From NCBI GenBank assembly GCA_017477805.1, contig JAFUUM010000001.1:1-30087 (forward strand): 30,087 bases of DNA, in the 5' to 3' direction. Made by a program: the position numbers and the translations under genes. This document shows positions 1,028 to 18,193 of the stretch, piece by piece; positions within the stretch are counted from its first letter, which is position 1, and the number at the start of each line of letters is the position of its first letter. The DNA is from Lachnospiraceae bacterium (lineage in GTDB: Bacteria; Bacillota; Clostridia; Lachnospirales; Lachnospiraceae). The notes beneath the pieces were generated by a model. That model did no database searches. It was not told the origin of the DNA and worked only from the letters and a program-made list of their open reading frames with translations.

Positions 1028-1334
1028 TTAATTTCGTTCTTACTTTCTTTCTGAACGTTTTTATTGCTCGTATTATGTTACTTTAAGAAATCTGCGATAC
1101 ATTCGCGGCCATAGCTCCCACGTAGCGGTTGCTGTCGTTGTAATCAGCGAAATCACAAATTTGTGGCACATTCAACAAGTAAAATCCCACAAAAATTGAC
1201 TTTTCTTTCAGGAGTAATCCATGGCTTGTATTTTTTACCTTCAGGGATATCCGCGCTTCGTTCACAGGCATGATCTTTTCCATCTGGGTGAACACCTTAC
1301 AATCAGCGGAAAGAGAATGCATTTACCCACTTTT

Positions 1335-1363
1335 ATAATAAACCATTTCGCTGAATTATTCCA
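1335..1363 (-). promoter_or_regulatory. Putative sigma70 promoter (TGGAAT-17-TATTAT) pointing to the phosphoglycerol transferase paralogue
   Basis: -35 at 1358-1363 and -10 at 1335-1340, 17-bp spacer. The same geometry recurs at 7575-7603. The -35 match is weak. Confidence 0.4.
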
Positions 1364-1520
1364 TTTGGGACCTAGCGCGAAATCGTGCAAGGCCCCATAT
1401 CTGCTTTGTAACTAAAAATCTGCCCTCGGATAGCAATCATCCCTGCACAGCACAGCATTATGCGGCTTTGGGGTAGATTGATATCCGGGAGCAGATATAA
1501 TTGTCGGAGCAGGTATGGAT
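1353..1520. repeat. Structured intergenic element, copy A (nested palindrome plus conserved GAATTATTCCATTT)
   Basis: Stems 1395-1405/1508-1518, 1418-1432/1482-1496 and 1434-1443/1470-1480, plus small hairpin 1375-1388. Homologous to 7593-7764. Confidence 0.85.
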
Positions 1521-1558: not shown

Positions 1559-2095
1559 TTACTTTAACAGTTCTGCCAGACAATGTTCATCTTTCGAATG
1601 AGCTTTTCCATGAACTCTCTGATATTCCTTAATAGAATTTACCAACATATCAATATCAGCGCCAAAATAATCTTGATAGAATTGCGTACTGTTATCGTAC
1701 ATCTTCTTTCCAAGCCTTACCCTGGCTTTTGCGAACTGTTTAGGCTTCACACTCCCTTTTACCTTTTCGTATTCCTTTTCTAGTCCTTCTGCAATAATAA
1801 GAAGCATTTCCAACTCGGGTTTTGTACAGTATATTCGCTGTTCAACTATCTTGTCTTTATATTCAATTGGGATTGTCAGTTTATCGCTCTGCTTATCTCC
1901 TATCCGAATGACGGTTACTTCACCAGGATATGTATTAAGAGCAATCCTCACCTGTGGATTGCTAACAATCTGACGCGCATGAAATGAATTAAGATCTAAT
2001 AAGTCATCTTCCGTGAACTGCAAACAATCATTTTCCAGAAGGAGATCAATAATCTTCTTTTCATTTGCTCCTTCGCACATGATCAATAGTTTCAT
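1559..2095 (-). CDS. RloB/TOPRIM-like protein, putative effector of a two-gene defence system
   Basis: 178 aa. N-terminal LLIMCEGANE resembles the TOPRIM/RloB hhhhEG..E motif, and TKPELEMLLII resembles the RloB P.FE.WLLLH motif. ATGA overlap with the upstream ATPase stop. AT-rich (23/60 GC on line 1561). Confidence 0.6.
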   Translation of the reverse strand: MKLLIMCEGANEKKIIDLLLENDCLQFTEDDLLDLNSFHARQIVSNPQVRIALNTYPGEVTVIRIGDKQSDKLTIPIEYKDKIVEQRIYCTKPELEMLLIIAEGLEKEYEKVKGSVKPKQFAKARVRLGKKMYDNSTQFYQDYFGADIDMLVNSIKEYQRVHGKAHSKDEHCLAELLK

Positions 2096-3207
2096 TTTTT
2101 CAGTTCCTTCTTTAATTCCATCAGAGCATCATAATTCACTGCAGTCTTGAAGACATTATTGTAAAACAGCTTACTTTTAAGTAATTCTGTCCGAACATCA
2201 AAGTCCGTATACATGTTTTTGATCCTGACTTTCTCATCGGCCACTGTAATGAAGATATTATCCTGACGATTAAACAAGTCCAGCAGTTCACAGTAATGTG
2301 TTGCAAATATGAGGGTGGCGTTCTTTTTGTTGATAGTCTTATCCTTATACATGCTGATGATGTTTTCTACCAACGTTTTATGGAAATGATTCTCGATCTC
2401 GTCTATGATCAGATCGAATCCATTCTGCAGTGAAAGAACAACCACCATATAGAGGGCAATGCCTTTTGTCGTTCCGCTTGAAAGGCGGAAGTACAATTCT
2501 ACGCCAGAAAGTATTTCTTCCTTCCCACCGGCCACTAACCGATAGTTCGTCTCGTCGATCATTTCCAGTTTGGTAATACTCTCATCGAATATTTTAACTA
2601 TTTTTGTGATCACATCTTCAGGAAGCCCAAACGTCCGGTGTGCCTGGAACGCAGTCCTATATGCATCTGCGCCAATATCCATGCTGCTATAAAACCATGC
2701 AGGAAACTGCAGTTTCTTCAATACAAAAAACAGGTTAGAAGTATCCTCCGGTAGTTCTCCTTCGAACCGAACAAGCTCCGAACCATCAAAATCAAAAATT
2801 GCATTGATACCGGTTTTATAATATTTCTTTCCCAACAGTTCCTGATCATCAAAGTTAATGTGACCAGTCAAACCTTCTTCAATCAATCCGGTACTGTAAC
2901 GATAGATATAGCCTTCATGGTAAAAAAACATTGTTATATGAACACCATTCAGCCTAAAGCTTTTCGGGCTAACTCGGAAGTCATTCAAAATATCATAGCA
3001 AAGTTCCAGCACTTCCAATGCAGATGTTTTTCCGGAAGCATTTTTACCCACCACGGCCATTGTTGAAAAAACATAAAGGCCTTCAGCAATTTCCTGAAGT
3101 TCATACTCCTTATCTTCTGCGGTTTTGCGAGCAACGGGGACAAAGTTGATCTCAAAGTTATTGGCACAGTTCTTGAAATTGGTTGCGATTACTTTCAATA
3201 TTTTCAT
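2092..3207 (-). CDS. ABC-type ATPase (AAA_21/RloA/AbiLi-like), soluble
   Basis: 371 aa. Walker A GKNASGKT, signature LSSGT, Walker B LIIDEIE, H-switch FATH. No TM segments or permease neighbour. SD AAAGGGAG. Confidence 0.85.
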   Translation of the reverse strand: MKILKVIATNFKNCANNFEINFVPVARKTAEDKEYELQEIAEGLYVFSTMAVVGKNASGKTSALEVLELCYDILNDFRVSPKSFRLNGVHITMFFYHEGYIYRYSTGLIEEGLTGHINFDDQELLGKKYYKTGINAIFDFDGSELVRFEGELPEDTSNLFFVLKKLQFPAWFYSSMDIGADAYRTAFQAHRTFGLPEDVITKIVKIFDESITKLEMIDETNYRLVAGGKEEILSGVELYFRLSSGTTKGIALYMVVVLSLQNGFDLIIDEIENHFHKTLVENIISMYKDKTINKKNATLIFATHYCELLDLFNRQDNIFITVADEKVRIKNMYTDFDVRTELLKSKLFYNNVFKTAVNYDALMELKKELKK

Positions 3208-6079: not shown

Positions 6080-7498
6080 TTATTTTGCTCCCTCTCCCGT
6101 GAACATCACTGCGATGGTCTTAAAGAGAAGTTTGATATCGAGTCCGATGCTCCACTGATCGATGTATTCAAGGTCCAGTTTCACGATCTCATCGAAGTTA
6201 TAGATATCGGACCTTCCGCTGACCTGCCAAAGCCCGGTGATGCCGGGGGTAACGGAGAGGCGCCGCTTTTGTTCCGTCTTGTACTGCTCTACTTCTTCCA
6301 CCGTGGGAGGTCTCGTTCCCACAAGGCTCATATCCCCTTTCAGGACGTTCAAAAATTGAGGGAGTTCGTCGATGCTGTGCTTCCGAATGAACTTCCCGAC
6401 TTTGGTGATACGGGGGTCGTTCTCCATCTTGAACATGGCACCCTGCATCTCATTCTGCGCCATGAGTTCCGCTTTCCTTGCATCTGCATCCGCGTACATG
6501 CTTCGGAACTTGTACATCTTAAAGTGTCTGCCGTTTTTTCCTACCCGGGTAGAAGTATAGATGGCAGGGCCCTTGGACTCTAGCTTGATGGCGGGGACGA
6601 CGAAGATCCCAACGATGATGGTAATAAGAAGACCGATGAGTCCGCCCACCAGGTCCATGAGACGTTTGATGACGAGCTGACCCGGTTCGTAAAGGTTACT
6701 GGAATAGGACACCACTTTGAAAAAGCCTAGGTTCTCCAGTCTCTTATTGGTCATGTCCAGTTCCAGGGCATCCACGTTGACGTGGACGATAACGCCCATG
6801 TTCTGGAAGTCGTGGAGCATCCTCCGGACGTCGAAGTTATGCTCATTGCCGTAGCCAATGTTCAGGAAAACATCGTCCAGGGCGATGTTCTTGGTCTCCT
6901 CCAGCATGTCCTCTACGTTGGCAATAACGGGGATCCCCTGTATGGTCTCTCCCTTTGCGTTCCGATCGATGAGGACGATGTAGGCGATCTTGAAGTACCA
7001 GTTGTTGGTGGTCTCGATCTTTTCGAGGATGGAGTCCACCTTATCCGAAGTCGTCACCAGTAAGATCTGCTTGTAGGATCTGCTGCTCTTGTAGTACACG
7101 GCGATAAGGCGTTTCATCAAAAGCCGGCCGAAGTACGAGAGGATGAAGTAGATCGTAAAGAAGTAGATCATCTGCAGTCGGGCGTAATTTGCCGCTTCTT
7201 TTGAAAAGAAGAGGTAGAAGAGCACCACCATGGCGATGCAGAGTTCGCCCTTGACTACAGCAACGAATTCCGCAAAGAGGCCCCGGTCAAAGACCTTGTG
7301 ATCCAGCCGGAAGATCCGGTTCCCCACGAAGTAGGCAATGAGCGCCAGCCCCAGAACCTGGAGGAACAGGCCGTCGTTCTGCTTAAGGTCCATGGTCCCG
7401 AATCGGATGAGACTGGCCAGCAGGAAGGAAACAAGGACTGCTGCCATGTCATAGAGCAGGAACATATAGTGTTTGATCAGGTTTTCTTTTTGAAACAT
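6080..7498 (-). CDS. Priming polyprenyl glycosylphosphotransferase (WcaJ/CpsE-type, long form)
   Basis: N-terminal TM helices; C-terminal KRLMD, YKFRSM, DPRITKVG, SIDELPQ, SLVGTRP, PGITGLWQVSGRS. Confidence 0.95.
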   Translation of the reverse strand: MFQKENLIKHYMFLLYDMAAVLVSFLLASLIRFGTMDLKQNDGLFLQVLGLALIAYFVGNRIFRLDHKVFDRGLFAEFVAVVKGELCIAMVVLFYLFFSKEAANYARLQMIYFFTIYFILSYFGRLLMKRLIAVYYKSSRSYKQILLVTTSDKVDSILEKIETTNNWYFKIAYIVLIDRNAKGETIQGIPVIANVEDMLEETKNIALDDVFLNIGYGNEHNFDVRRMLHDFQNMGVIVHVNVDALELDMTNKRLENLGFFKVVSYSSNLYEPGQLVIKRLMDLVGGLIGLLITIIVGIFVVPAIKLESKGPAIYTSTRVGKNGRHFKMYKFRSMYADADARKAELMAQNEMQGAMFKMENDPRITKVGKFIRKHSIDELPQFLNVLKGDMSLVGTRPPTVEEVEQYKTEQKRRLSVTPGITGLWQVSGRSDIYNFDEIVKLDLEYIDQWSIGLDIKLLFKTIAVMFTGEGAK

Positions 7499-7574
7499 GG
7501 TTTATAATTCCTATCAGATTTTTAGGAAAATCAGGCGCTCCGCCCGCGTAAAACGCGCATGGCCGTCCACTGCT

Positions 7575-7603
7575 ATCATATACTATTTTGGCGAATTATT
7601 CCA
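7575..7603 (-). promoter_or_regulatory. Putative sigma70 promoter (TGGAAT-17-TATGAT) for the priming-transferase sub-operon
   Basis: -35 at 7598-7603 and -10 at 7575-7580, ~75 bp upstream of ATG 7498. Position conserved with copy A. Confidence 0.45.
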
Positions 7604-7764
7604 TTTATAGAGGGCGCAGAAGCGCACAAAGATCCATACCTGCTTGATCACAAAAAATCTGCCCCGGGAGGGCTGTCAACCCTGCGCAGCACCGCCGTCG
7701 TCGGCGGCCCTGGGGTTGACTCCCCTTCTGGGGCAGATATGATTTCTTAGAGCAGGTATGGATC
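7593..7764. repeat. Structured intergenic element, copy B
   Basis: Perfect 14-bp IR GATCCATACCTGCT (7631-7644)/7751-7764 encloses ATCTGCCCC (7657-7665)/7730-7738, GTCAACC (7675-7681)/7714-7720 and apical CCGCCG-TCGT-CGGCGG. Homologous to 1353-1520. Confidence 0.88.
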
Positions 7765-7842
7765 ATTTGCTTTCCATCTGCACTTCTAAATTCAATGGCT
7801 TGCGGAGCAAGGCTTCCTTTCACCGGCATTATTTGCAGCCAA

Positions 7843-7946
7843 CAAGTTACCGGCAAGTTAAAAAATCATACATATTGTGTATTTTGGCTTATTGCACAAC
7901 TATATGTGCTAATATAATGCTTGTTCTGCAAGTTACCAGCAAGTTA
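7843..7946. repeat. Two 18-bp direct repeats CAAGTTACC(G/A)GCAAGTTA
   Basis: 7843-7860 and 7929-7946, one mismatch. Each is a tandem CAAGTTA heptamer at 11-bp pitch. Confidence 0.8.
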
Positions 7947-7948
7947 AA

Positions 7949-9397
7949 TCAAGCCCAAATCGGTATATACTTCATATACCGTGGTGCAGTTGTCGGATCC
8001 AATGGTTTAATAAGCTTTCTTTCAACTGCATCTTTTATCAATCTTGAAATATTAGCAGCAGCGGAATCCTTAAGCCCAAATCGATCTCTTAGTGATGAAT
8101 TTGTCAATTGTTCACCTTGAATGTATTTTATGCAAGCGTGAAGATAACAAGCCCATATTTTATCTTCAACCGATAAATTGGAATAGGCTATGTGAGAAAA
8201 CAAAGTCACGCGAGTGCTATCTTCGTATAAATTGATTTTAGGTGCCGGAAGCAATTTCGCCTCACATGAGATGATCATTTTATCCCAACCAGTTCCTAAT
8301 TCCTCACATATTCCCAGGCGGCGCATCAATTGTGCCATTTTTTCATTTCTTGATTTGGGCGGATTATCAACGATACGGTTAATATCTACTAATGGAGTCC
8401 CCGAATTTGTAATCTCAATCCTATTTTCAAATATTTCTACCGTAGGTCCTGTTCCCGAAACAGAAAAATCCTGATGAATCAACGCGTTAGCAATCGCTTC
8501 CCTCACAGCCAGCGTCGGGTATAATGCTACTGTTGAACGCAACCCGTTTTCAATTACTTCTTCAGATGGAAGCATGGCTCCAATGAACCTGATCAGTTCA
8601 TCAAATCTGACAGCATATCCCCGACCGCTGATTTCCTCCTTCAGCATGTGAAGTTTATTATTGCCTTCATATAAAACCACTCTAATAGCTTTTCTTGCAA
8701 GTCTGTCAAAGTCAGTTAATTTCTTAGCGAATAGAATTGCACCAAGATTAGTTATCGCATACAACCCATTATCCTGTTTAACAACGCAGTTTTCTTCTAT
8801 CAAATAATGCAGAACACCTTCTGGATCAATAGGTTGTCTAATCCCCATCAATTCAAAATAACTGCCAATTTCTAAATAGTCTAGTGCCTCTTCACGTTGT
8901 AAATCATATTTAGCATATCTTTCTTCAAATCTTTCATTTCGAAGTCTATCCCACAATTGGCTTTGAAGCGCAGGGAACTCATTTAGCTTTTTGGTATAAC
9001 TTCCGACTCTTATATAATCAGCTTTTTTGAATGAAACAGGCATATTCAATGCTTTTTGAATTATAAGAACCCCAACCCGTCCTTCCGGCATATTAATCGG
9101 CTCATATGAAAAATCAGCATTATTGGACAATAAGGAGCGAAGCCAGTTTTCTAATTCCTGATCACCTTTTTTGAGGGACTGGAGGTCATAATCAGTTCCA
9201 ACTATTTCATGGGTAGCATCATCAATTCCCCAAATCATGTATGCACAGTTCTTTTCGCACAACGTTGCACTATTCGCCAACGCGCTAATATCTTCCCCTA
9301 TCATCTGTGGATCATAATTATCATGTTTAAACTCCACCCAAGCAGCTTCATTCTTCAATTTGCGCAGTTCATTGATTAGCAATCCAAGATTTTCCAT
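7949..9397 (-). CDS. Schlafen/AlbA_2-domain protein with HATPase_c_4-like and C-terminal wHTH regions (often annotated RecG-like/transcriptional regulator)
   Basis: 482 aa. EAAWVEFK and ISALAN (AlbA_2), REAIANALIHQDF, SRNEKMA, CEELGTGWDKM (HATPase_c_4-like), LTNSSLRDRFG (wHTH). AT-rich (21/60 GC on line 8701). Confidence 0.85.
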   Translation of the reverse strand: MENLGLLINELRKLKNEAAWVEFKHDNYDPQMIGEDISALANSATLCEKNCAYMIWGIDDATHEIVGTDYDLQSLKKGDQELENWLRSLLSNNADFSYEPINMPEGRVGVLIIQKALNMPVSFKKADYIRVGSYTKKLNEFPALQSQLWDRLRNERFEERYAKYDLQREEALDYLEIGSYFELMGIRQPIDPEGVLHYLIEENCVVKQDNGLYAITNLGAILFAKKLTDFDRLARKAIRVVLYEGNNKLHMLKEEISGRGYAVRFDELIRFIGAMLPSEEVIENGLRSTVALYPTLAVREAIANALIHQDFSVSGTGPTVEIFENRIEITNSGTPLVDINRIVDNPPKSRNEKMAQLMRRLGICEELGTGWDKMIISCEAKLLPAPKINLYEDSTRVTLFSHIAYSNLSVEDKIWACYLHACIKYIQGEQLTNSSLRDRFGLKDSAAANISRLIKDAVERKLIKPLDPTTAPRYMKYIPIWA

Positions 9398-9432
9398 ATT
9401 TTACCTTTCAAATATGCTTTTGCGCTCCGCTT

Positions 9433-16943: not shown

Positions 16944-17030
16944 TCTCTGCCGAGTAGGCAGAACGGAGCGACTGCTCCTTTTTGAATGGAAGATGGGTAC
17001 ATCATAGCATGAACAAAATTGGTTGACAAG
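16944..17030 (-). promoter_or_regulatory. Promoter plus double-hairpin leader, copy C2 (direct repeat of 17977-18062)
   Basis: TTGTCA (17024-17029)-17-TATGAT (17001-17006) with extended -10 TG, followed by GGAGC-AGTC-GCTCC and TCTGCC-TACTC-GGCAGA hairpins. Confidence 0.85.
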
Positions 17031-17058
17031 TTATAATTTGAAATTCGTTTATATTTTT

Positions 17059-17253
17059 CTATTTTTCCTGAAGGATCTTTTCGAATTCACTTACCGGAAT
17101 GCCCAGTTTTTGGGCAGCCTTCTCCATGGAGAGGTCACCGGATTGAACCAAGTCAATTAAGGTAGTAAGACGGCCTTCCTCGCGGCCTTCCTCGCGGCCC
17201 TCCTCTTTGATCTTCTGAAAGTGTTTTGCTTCATCGTATTCGGTTAATAGCAT
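17059..17253 (-). CDS. Putative internal small protein (RpnS-like, 64 aa) in frame with rpn
   Basis: AGGAGGT (17261-17267) lies 7 nt before in-frame ATG 17253 (Met225): MLLTEYDEAKHFQKIKEEGREEGREEGRL... Confidence 0.6.
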   Translation of the reverse strand: MLLTEYDEAKHFQKIKEEGREEGREEGRLTTLIDLVQSGDLSMEKAAQKLGIPVSEFEKILQEK

Positions 17254-17925
17254 TCCTTTCACCTCCTCACGATTATTCATGAGAAACTTTCGTATTTCAA
17301 ATTCTTCCGGCATTTCTTCCAGGGACCTGTCTACAGCGGCTCCTATTCTCATGGTCTTCTTGTTTTTCCTAATGGCATCAATCAACCAGGAGTATTCTTT
17401 CAAGGGTTTACAATCCCTTAAGAGCTCTTTATTGTCCTCCGGTTTGATATTTATCAAATGTACTGTAACTTCAACATCGGATTTGCCCGCGTCTATTGCT
17501 TTATCAAACGAGGAACTGAGTTTCAATTCCTGATCTTCGATATCGTCTGCACCATTATAAAACGTAATCAATCGTGGAAGCGGGAGCCGGATCAGTTTCT
17601 GACCATATAAATCTTGATCAGTATCCATTATATGTTTTTCGTAAAGCCGACTCAGGTACATCAGCTGGCGAATAGGCATATTCGGATTATATGTGCTCTG
17701 CTGCTCATACAGATTGATCGTCGTGTTGAATAAAAACGACACATCATTCTTCATGCCCATGTACAACACATTTTCGATCGTATTGATTTCGATTTCGTCT
17801 GCATTTGTGTAATCTGTCCCGTTCAAAGCATTATAAAGGGACAATGTCCATGGCTTGTTTTCCTCTCGGCCAAAAATAAACGAGAACAGCCGATCCTTGT
17901 ATTTCCTATTTACTTGTTCATTCAT
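17059..17925 (-). CDS. Rpn/YhgA-family PD-(D/E)XK nuclease
   Basis: KYKDRLF, KNDVSF, LYEQQSTYNPNMPIR, ITFYNG, EEGR repeats and C-terminal helical tail. SD GAAAGGAG. Confidence 0.88.
   Translation of the reverse strand: MNEQVNRKYKDRLFSFIFGREENKPWTLSLYNALNGTDYTNADEIEINTIENVLYMGMKNDVSFLFNTTINLYEQQSTYNPNMPIRQLMYLSRLYEKHIMDTDQDLYGQKLIRLPLPRLITFYNGADDIEDQELKLSSSFDKAIDAGKSDVEVTVHLINIKPEDNKELLRDCKPLKEYSWLIDAIRKNKKTMRIGAAVDRSLEEMPEEFEIRKFLMNNREEVKGMLLTEYDEAKHFQKIKEEGREEGREEGRLTTLIDLVQSGDLSMEKAAQKLGIPVSEFEKILQEK
17171..17206 (-). repeat. 12-bp tandem repeat x3 encoding EEGR
   Basis: cggccttcctcg cggccttcctcg cggccctcctct on the plus strand. Confidence 0.85.
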
Positions 17926-17976
17926 TCGTTTCTCCTTTCATGATAGCTTCTTCAGTTTTCAGTTACAAGTGGATAT

Positions 17977-18062
17977 TCTCTGCCGAGTAGGCAGAATGGA
18001 GCGACTGCTCCTTTTGAATGGAAGATGGGTACATCATACCACAGCGCAAATTGGTTGACAAG
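17977..18062 (-). promoter_or_regulatory. Promoter plus double-hairpin leader, copy C1, upstream of rpn
   Basis: TTGTCA (18056-18061)-17-TATGAT (18033-18038) with TG extension. Same hairpins as C2. Confidence 0.85.
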
Positions 18063-18133
18063 CTGTCTCTGCGCGACAGCGCAGTTTTTTCAAGGGCGGA
18101 GGCGGAAGCCTCCGGCTTCCTTTCTTGAAAGGA

Positions 18134-18167
18134 AAGAACCCGAACGGGTTACCCCGTTCGGGTTCTT
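18134..18167 (-). terminator. Intrinsic terminator of the rubrerythrin-desulfoferrodoxin operon
   Basis: Perfect 15-bp IR AAGAACCCGAACGGG/CCCGTTCGGGTTCTT, 4-nt loop, T-rich tail on the minus strand. Confidence 0.85.
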
Positions 18168-18193
18168 CTGATCACTTTATGTTCTTCCAAAGC

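Follow-up and report, generated by a model that had tools for sequence, protein, structure and literature searches.

Two long hairpins in a Lachnospiraceae polysaccharide operon belong to a palindromic module of insertion-sequence 3' ends with putative outward-facing promoters

Palindromic intergenic repeats of 100–160 bp are represented by the Correia elements (CREE/NEMIS) of Neisseria and by the ERIC/IRU repeats of enterobacteria, which often lie just downstream of genes and are co-transcribed with them. They are able to form long hairpins and to serve as terminators or RNase III sites, internally deleted variants exist, and the ends of the Correia elements carry outward promoter boxes. Here, we analyse a palindromic non-coding element present as copy A (1334–1520) and copy B (7574–7764) in the first 30,087 nucleotides of contig JAFUUM010000001.1 (assembly GCA_017477805.1) from a Lachnospiraceae bacterium; this whole stretch is referred to as the window. 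Both copies belong to a dispersed family of long hairpins that usually reside in insertion sequences (ISs), and this family membership and IS origin are secure. For the fuller reading, in which A and B are stand-alone and partly remodelled versions of a palindromic DNA module from the 3' ends of ISs of rumen Lachnospiraceae and carry outward-facing promoters, we regard the case as evenly balanced.

Two further systems bear on the element. Transposases of the ISLre2/TnGBS family insert 15–17 bp upstream of σA promoters (PMC3942029). The leading regions of F-like plasmids contain the Frpo/ssi sequences, which are presented in PMC11541004, citing Masai & Arai (1997), as hairpin promoters of single-stranded DNA (ssDNA).

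The two copies align with 80% column identity over 1322–1532 and 7562–7776, a likeness that sets in about 45 nt left of the small hairpin and extends about 10 nt beyond the right side of the long one. An initial annotation of the window had proposed a conserved nested fold that is bigger than an ordinary terminator, and this is borne out: both copies contain a nested hairpin of about 135 nt (Table 1), the 14-mer that they share is located at 1353–1366 and 7593–7606, and the compensatory changes between them are real. The tip of copy B is framed by GTCAAC (7675–7680) and GTTGAC (7715–7720). Relative to shuffled sequences, the RNA folding z-scores of A and B are −5.6 and −9.9 on the plus strand and −5.1 and −9.2 on the minus strand, while folding with DNA parameters gives values of −3.6 to −10.1 over both strands. 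The element had also not been recognised as a known riboswitch, and the Rfam search agrees. Nothing in the whole window reaches a gathering threshold, the matches below threshold for copy A and one IS copy are chance microRNA-like hairpins (E > 0.03) and seven module-carrying loci yield two tRNAs only. A 6S-like RNA was rejected because Rfam gave no match.

The same annotation had described a two-copy element lying between a defence-like insert and the restart of polysaccharide genes, and a reading as private and specific to such junctions is not supported. BLASTN indeed finds only A and B in the source genome, a 2.43-Mb metagenome-assembled genome (MAG) that is 77% complete, but a covariance model (R1), built after three weak matches in other genera, adds a third copy. 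This copy (G000:C168:16928–17092) is more divergent, belongs to another subfamily, lies about 140 nt from a contig end and is preceded by the IS-type motif TAG-AAAAGGAAGCC plus a hairpin. The tip pattern GTCAACNCTGCG...GGGGTTGAC is matched in more than 119 places in a species-representative genome collection, about 65 of them in rumen Lachnospiraceae, where the carriers are Butyrivibrio, Oribacterium and Eubacterium MAGs and the Hungate isolates G11, AC3007 and P6B14. R1 confirmed 68 places in rumen Lachnospiraceae genomes; the family total there exceeds 100 copies, IS 3' ends being their commonest location, and five isolates hold 3–14 places each. Among 150 sampled Lachnospiraceae genera, nine (∼6%) contain R1 matches.

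The element is therefore not private to the window. In spirit it fits the generic repeat against which it had been contrasted, being mobile and independent of context, but it does not occur in hundreds of copies: the number is tens per genome at most, and with three copies in this genome and 3–14 in the five isolates it falls short of a repetitive extragenic palindrome (REP/REPIN) family on copy number, no RAYT gene having been sought. Numerous copies lie at contig ends, and in four isolates the same element terminates two separate contigs, as would be produced by a long palindrome that breaks short-read assemblies. Plasmid and phage collections gave no BLASTN match and viral contigs a single one, to the tip motif only; a plasmid or phage origin was rejected on these grounds. 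Three copies (L017:1471–1555, L155:123–237 and L199:603–698) retain the outer stem and an ATCTG box and have lost the middle stem and tip. Apart from this loss, L017 matches the full IS3 copy in L070 at 99.5% identity, and the deletions look like the product of slippage driven by the palindrome.

The usual site of the module is inside an IS, between the transposase stop codon and the right end, with ISLre2 providing most hosts. Fifteen copies begin 34–40 nt after the stop codon of an ISLre2 transposase (PF06782/NF033529), and further copies follow IS3 (rve) orfB or IS1634-family transposase genes. When 30 distant ISLre2 loci were searched with the covariance model, five were found to carry the module, with transposases only 34–36% identical to the query; the module is thus a component of ISLre2 in the 15 family copies and in these five loci. 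Two other ISLre2 loci of the sample have shorter GTCAAGG...CCTTGA hairpins. In four ISLre2 pairs, each from different genomes, the likeness continues to 105–150 nt beyond the hairpin and then ends, which places the end of the IS. This right end reads ...AAATTTACGC(T/C)ATC. In one of these elements, L066, a promoter-like TTGGCA-17-TATAAT starts 17 nt beyond the IS end, in agreement with the insertion rule of the ISLre2/TnGBS family. In Butyrivibrio INlla18, a 2,042-nt contig consists of an IS3-family element (TGATATG...CTGTTCA) whose hairpin lies 133 nt short of the right end, and a 99.5%-identical copy in another genome diverges exactly past that end.

The complete module is ordered as a terminator-like hairpin abutting the transposase stop codon (hp1), a small GC hairpin (hp2), the ∼135-nt palindrome, a further hairpin (hp3) and a terminator. 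Neither window copy has an adjacent transposase; B retains the IS-type terminator, whereas A has the hairpins only. Copy B aligns with the ISLre2 copies L022 and L053 across the hairpin and into the downstream terminator, and it follows that B is the 3'-end fragment of an IS that has lost its transposase. Copies outside ISs adjoin ordinary genes (rimP-nusA and genes for arabinofuranosidase, HD-GYP and GGDEF/EAL proteins), usually abutting the 3' end of the gene. No direct target duplications are seen at A, B, L015, L016 or L070, and the ends of the outer stem are unlike those of ISLre2 or IS3.

For the long hairpin alone, 70 distinct copies were re-oriented by their tips and aligned. The consensus fold has 36 pairs, 28 of which show double changes. 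Paired cells amount to 92.7%, compared with 71.8% in shuffles and 31–47% with slid partners, and there are 538 double-change cells against 167 in shuffles, the observed value being reached by none of 500 shuffles. The pairing that had been noted between A and B therefore holds in the larger alignment as well, a check that the initial annotation had itself named. The 10–12-bp stretch between the invariant boxes differs in nearly every copy and is always paired, and the tip stem of the distant ISLre2 loci, GTCAAGG/CCTTGAC in place of the usual GTCAACC/GGTTGAC, is a compensatory swap. The tip is a three-way junction with the stem GTCAACCC/GGGTTGAC and two GC-rich mini-hairpins with three-base loops, often exactly GCGAAGC. 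This heptamer is said, from the work of Hirao and co-workers, to form a hyperstable DNA mini-hairpin.

Close relatives differ in the orientation of the inner part of the palindrome (middle stem and tip), which can be present as its own reverse complement. In the pair L059 and L070, for example, the inversion leaves the outer stem, internal loops and adjacent small hairpin in the same orientation. An automatic call gives 37 flip and 17 flop copies. The tip has no consistent orientation relative to flanking transcription (about 15 versus 13), and no orientation rule was found. Arm mismatches of the G–T and A–C types number 109 and 126 when the copies are oriented by the model and 135 and 90 when oriented by the tip; since the copies are related by descent, these counts are only indicative and too weak to choose a strand. 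Taken together, the flip/flop, the random orientation and the weak wobble bias argue against an RNA device of the sense strand and for symmetry at the level of DNA. A step from the covariation to a structured RNA is not supported. An invertible promoter switch was considered and rejected: its promoters would lie in symmetric arms, where inversion of the tip changes nothing, and no recombinase is consistently near. Three phage-integrase matches close to copies are broken fragments.

Fixed boxes stand in both arms. At fixed offsets from TTGAC in the 70-copy alignment (64–68 arms scored per side), each arm reads outward as TTGACN, 16 nt, T (0.81–0.95) A (0.82–0.83) nnn T (0.74–0.77) and, 8 nt on, A (0.82–0.95), the profile values being given in brackets. 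The positions between the boxes are variable, the spacer is 16 nt long in 56 of the 70 copies, and the T at position 6 of the −10 box and the start A sit in otherwise unconstrained, unpaired sequence. Across the alignment both arms follow the grammar of σA promoters, down to the −10 positions of highest information and a purine at the start site, and activity is predicted from these sequences. A promoter scan flags sites in B, in L022 and in both arms of L066 and L070. On the leftward side of L066 the terminator scan picks out hp2 (GTGCGC..GCGCAC plus TTTATT) and hp1 (CAGAGGC..GCCTCTG plus GCTTCCTTTT) as terminator-like; in L070 hp2 is picked out. The A-rich motif next to the transposase stop codon corresponds to the U-run of hp1. 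To the right of the module there is a small hairpin and then an intrinsic terminator.

The spacing between the two −35 boxes is 31 bp in 15 copies and 35 bp in another 30 (45 of 69), which puts the centre of the dyad 15–18 bp upstream of both. This offset equals the distance at which ISLre2/TnGBS elements insert upstream of promoters, an unexplained coincidence.

From these features we propose that the palindrome may act as two back-to-back, outward-facing promoters of the σA type. Each would have its −35 box (TTGACN) in the stem next to the tip, followed by a 16-nt spacer of unconstrained sequence that always pairs with the other arm, a −10 box (TAnnnT) at the border between stem and internal loop and a start A, and each would face a nearby terminator hairpin. 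With its promoters facing terminators, the module would amount to two very short, divergent transcription units, compactly arranged and also able to fold as a hairpin. The firing of the boxes, termination at the U-run and any role of the module for the IS are predictions from the grammar of promoter and terminator sequences.

All genes of the polysaccharide operon, which occupies the first 30 kb, lie on the minus strand. In the direction of the genes, copy A is just downstream of a defence-type pair, an AAA_21 ATPase gene and an overlapping 178-aa gene, whose 3' end is 39 nt right of position 1520. Copy B has the Schlafen/AlbA_2 gene upstream and an initiating sugar transferase (6080–7498) downstream. 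In both copies the place of the leftward −10 box is taken by an A-run and the middle stem is 24 bp long, which creates a hairpin-plus-U, terminator-like layout on the gene strand after each defence-type gene. After the middle stem the minus strand continues with AUUUUUUG in B and AUUUUUAG in A; the terminator scan reports a short sub-hairpin (7673–7661) plus AGATTTTTTG on this strand in B only, and nothing in A. The right-arm site of copy A escapes the promoter scan owing to its weak −35 box. Further left, the initial annotation had read a −10-like hexamer, 13 nt and the 14-mer. The minus strand offers a better reading of this arrangement, TGGAAT-17-TATTAT for copy A and TGGAAT-17-TATGAT for copy B; it remains as a weak candidate promoter with 8 of 12 matches, below the scan threshold and in a region common to A and B only, and a better match lies inside the hairpin arm. 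The wider idea of a junction made of a hairpin plus a promoter is supported, with its origin now placed in IS debris.

For the window, we suggest that the copies came in with laterally acquired defence-type genes and that A and B kept the rightward promoter while the leftward −10 box turned into the A-run. The middle stem and U-run on the gene strand would then end the defence-gene transcript, and the adjacent weak promoter, conserved between the copies, would restart transcription of the sugar genes.

Table 1. Positions of the hairpins, candidate promoters, terminator-like features and adjoining genes in the window
Feature	Coordinates	Strand	Basis
Copy A small GC hairpin GCGCG-AAAT-CGTGC, equivalent of hp2 in IS copies	1375..1388		fold, alignments
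Copy A long hairpin: outer stem CCATATCTGCT/AGCAGGTATGG, internal loop, middle stem, three-way tip	1395..1518		folds; covariance model R1, 148.6 bits
Copy A A-run (TAAAAAT on plus strand; run 1414–1418); gene-strand U-run straight after middle stem	1413..1419	−	sequence, fold; inferred from anatomy
Copy A right-arm boxes: TAGATT (degenerate −35), 16-nt spacer, TATAAT	1474..1501	+	sequence; position matches family profile
Copy A candidate restart promoter: TGGAAT (complement 1358–1363), 17 nt, TATTAT (complement 1335–1340); overlaps 14-mer	1335..1363	−	sequence, conserved between A and B
Copy B small GC hairpin GCGC-AGAA-GCGC	7614..7625		sequence, fold
Copy B long hairpin: outer stem GATCCATACCTGCT/AGCAGGTATGGATC, middle stem, tip	7631..7764		folds; covariance model R1, 165 bits
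Copy B A6 run; gene-strand U6 straight after middle stem, terminator-like, after Schlafen/AlbA_2 gene	7652..7657	−	sequence, fold
Copy B right-arm boxes TTGACT-16-TATGAT; −10 at border of middle stem and internal loop	7716..7743	+	scan, 10/12; family profile
Copy B candidate restart promoter: TGGAAT (complement 7598–7603), 17 nt, TATGAT (complement 7575–7580); overlaps 14-mer	7575..7603	−	sequence, conserved between A and B
Terminator-like hairpin CTTGCGGAGCAAG plus GCTTCCTTTC, homologue of terminator after module in ISLre2 L022 and L053	7799..7821	+	scan, alignment
AAA_21 ATPase gene (2092–3207) and overlapping 178-aa gene (1559–2095)	1559..3207	−	Pfam scan of open reading frames
Schlafen/AlbA_2-HATPase_c_4 gene	7949–9397	−	Pfam domains
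1,933-bp block: Schlafen/AlbA_2-HATPase_c_4 gene, copy B and restart promoter	7500..9432	−	missing in related strain

Several observations weigh against this proposal of back-to-back promoters. In the RNA run that was examined, as contigs only, no contig covers the element. The −35 box of copy A is degenerate, and the restart promoters of A and B are left unflagged by the scan. The U-run lies inside an internal loop of the larger fold, which makes the efficiency of termination uncertain. The tip is more conserved than a mere spacer between promoters requires, and the copies are related by descent, so that counts overstate their independence. Most importantly, back-to-back promoters in duplex DNA have no need of complementary spacers, and the strong covariation therefore calls for a second cause. 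Possible causes are recombination between the arms that homogenizes them, a hairpin in read-through RNA and a function of the folded single strand, and more than one of them may act together.

Of these three, the last would explain the most of the anatomy. According to this alternative the element is a promoter or priming site of ssDNA: folding of the palindrome would rebuild the −35 box and spacer as a duplex and leave the −10 box half-melted at the internal loop, RNA polymerase would start there, and the short RNA, ending at the adjacent hairpin, would prime the complementary strand or give early transcription. Conjugative entry, rolling-circle or copy-out replication and lagging-strand gaps are conceivable settings. 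A spacer that is free in sequence yet always paired would be explained in one step, as would the consistent location of the −35 box in the stem and of the −10 box at the border of stem and loop, the outer stem of 13–18 bp after the start site, the terminator hairpins 20–60 nt downstream and the GC-rich triloops at the tip; the DNA folds are very stable on both strands and the orientation relative to genes is random. We nevertheless consider it unlikely. Nothing links the DDE ISs, or the window, to a single-stranded stage, and the near-absence of the module from plasmid, phage and viral sequences fits poorly with such a stage. The promoter boxes occur on both strands, whereas known ssDNA promoters are strand-specific, and the wobble bias of the tip-oriented copies is modest and comes from non-independent copies. 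Its specific form, in which the module is a hairpin-embedded ssDNA promoter on DDE ISs, the Firmicute counterpart of Frpo/sso, and recruits σA RNA polymerase to the folded IS end, is in our view rather doubtful. If true, the promoter could prime second-strand synthesis during copy-out or after transfer, and in the ISLre2/TnGBS family, which homes upstream of σA promoters, the module could tether the polymerase to the element.

Recombination between the arms could by itself account for the complementarity if the element were an inert scar or selfish repeat, namely debris of IS ends or of miniature inverted-repeat transposable elements in which arm-to-arm gene conversion maintains the pairing and the boxes are leftovers. 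Such recombination clearly occurs, given the flip/flop, and the internally deleted copies, the degenerate −35 box of copy A and the three G11 copies that share a 460-nt non-coding unit ending at the hairpin are what debris would look like. This explanation is improbable in view of the T at position 6 of the −10 box and the start A, which are conserved at variable, unpaired positions across distant subfamilies and three IS families. The module is also kept in ISLre2 lineages with strongly diverged transposases (34–36% identity to the query), and the changes that A and B have in common, in the A-run and the 14-mer region, create a layout of a terminator followed by a promoter.

Similarly little credit, in our estimate, is due to a structured RNA device, be it a cis-regulatory leader or element of a 3' untranslated region (UTR), an RNase III site, a stabilizer or a small RNA at the defence/polysaccharide junctions. 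The strong fold z-scores and the covariation are of the kind expected for an RNA, IS-borne modules occupy the transposase 3' UTR ahead of a terminator, the 3' end of a gene abuts the element in more than half of the copies, and the G–T wobbles of A and B favour the plus strand (4:0 and 5:2). The inversion of the inner part in close relatives would, however, alter every RNA loop, and the near-equal tip orientations relative to transcription do not favour one strand. In flop-tip copies, mostly IS-borne, the wobbles favour the strand opposite to the model orientation by 51 to 18, which for most of those copies is the transposase antisense strand. The absence of an Rfam family and of an RNA contig over the element in the metatranscriptome examined points the same way. 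A retron msr-msd is dismissed, as no reverse transcriptase is nearby and the small hairpin lies outside the outer stem.

Returning to the proposal of two outward-facing promoters, the block that contains copy B is variable between strains. A contig from an independent bovine-gut metagenome (X3) connects 7499 with 9433 through 11 other letters, which shows that a related strain lacks the whole block of the Schlafen-like gene, copy B and the restart region. Other differences were seen near copy B. A 20-nt direct repeat, CAAGTTACC(G/A)GCAAGTTAAA, is present at 7843–7862 and 7929–7948, its second copy being the final codons and stop of the Schlafen-like gene, and the two enclose a promoter-like TTGCAC-15-TATAAT on the plus strand. 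One contig of run X18 omits 7862–7953 and has five other letters in place. Another of that run, a 232-nt contig (record 15), matches 7583–7703 and then 7701–7739 with 72 unmatched letters between, inside the tip, which could be a variant tip, an insertion or an artefact of palindrome assembly. The Rpn-like gene 'cassette' with direct repeats of about 87 bp (16944–18062), also singled out in the initial annotation, lies outside the hairpin family, R1 giving a noise-level 13 bits at 18128–18182.

Individual copies elsewhere show additional features. In AC3007 (G303), loci L195, L196 and L197 form a subfamily with a third mini-hairpin at the tip, an extra GCGCATAGCGC, and a −35 to −35 distance stretched to about 50 nt. 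The 460-nt unit of G11 combines an AT-rich stretch of about 270 nt with the small and long hairpins and ends about 10 nt past the long one. At L174 (G301:C23:44900–46260) it is bordered by a 37-nt terminator hairpin with a T-run and by the exact reverse complement of this sequence, an inverted and not a direct duplication. Non-coding tandem arrays of 60–73-nt units, each with a short hairpin, abut the small hairpin of several copies (L016:826–1492; L015:1252–1470; L074:6150–6470 and 6650–6810; also L043 and L078). A CRISPR or TIGR-like reading of these arrays was rejected, as whole units repeat and there are no spacers. In five loci a protein of 258–279 aa (P0001) is encoded 300–500 nt away; it has no Pfam or NCBIfam match, and its C-terminus (PDFIIL...WEHLG) looks like that of a PD-(D/E)xK nuclease.

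These results remove a tempting false lead, that of a new riboswitch-like controller of capsule genes. The hairpins are instead mobile-element baggage of the two defence-type inserts, which they probably insulate by stopping and restarting transcription. More generally, one non-coding module is common to three unrelated IS families and to solo sites, with arms that co-vary and fixed boxes that spell two outward promoters. With active boxes, the module would become a portable unit for terminating and starting transcription that rewires expression wherever an IS leaves it behind; if they work in folded ssDNA, promoters of this type would extend from plasmid leading regions to ISs. The tie to an IS family that targets promoters offers a concrete handle on the targeting mechanism.

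As far as Rfam and the literature searched show, the module is undescribed. Nothing on it was found in the literature on ISLre2 hairpins and on palindromic repeats of Butyrivibrio, and the full text of PMC3942029 contains neither 'hairpin' nor 'palindrom', the internal palindromic module being undescribed there. The integron attC site is similar in being an imperfect palindrome that follows a cassette gene lacking a promoter and in having conserved boxes together with a middle that varies but is paired. It was rejected as an identity, as there are no RYYYAAC/GTTRRRY outer core sites and no cassette array and the copies are inside ISs. The outer ends of the module read (G)ATCC..CTGCTT and AAGCAG..GGAT(C), GTCAAC/GTTGAC stands at the tip and not at the base, and no integrase domain occurs among the first ten open reading frames of the window (up to 10233), the range covered by the Pfam scan. 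The inverted terminal repeat of adeno-associated virus shares the architecture only, a long stem capped by two mini-hairpins with the cap in both orientations; it is unrelated in sequence, host and replication mode, and the flip/flop of the module is most simply explained by recombination between the arms.

Compared with the Correia and ERIC repeats, to which it has no sequence relation and which belong to another phylum, the module has its promoters deep in the arms, pointing outward from a three-way tip, and occurs in 1–14 copies per genome. No target-site duplication or terminal inverted repeat for a known transposase was found, and the module is typically a passenger in complete ISs of three unrelated families. 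The commonest carrier, ISLre2 (p-MULT 3; PMC3942029), has it in some lineages only, and at L066, the one junction studied in detail, the promoter 17 nt beyond the end is placed as published for this family. In anatomy, the module resembles Frpo/ssi, ssoA of rolling-circle plasmids and the f1 minus-strand origin, which are likewise long imperfect hairpins with their −35 and −10 boxes in an intrastrand duplex. These elements have unpaired sequence around the −10 box and give a short RNA product; they are strand-specific and carried upstream of early genes by plasmids and phages with a known ssDNA stage, whereas the module has symmetric boxes on both arms and is chromosomal or borne by an IS.

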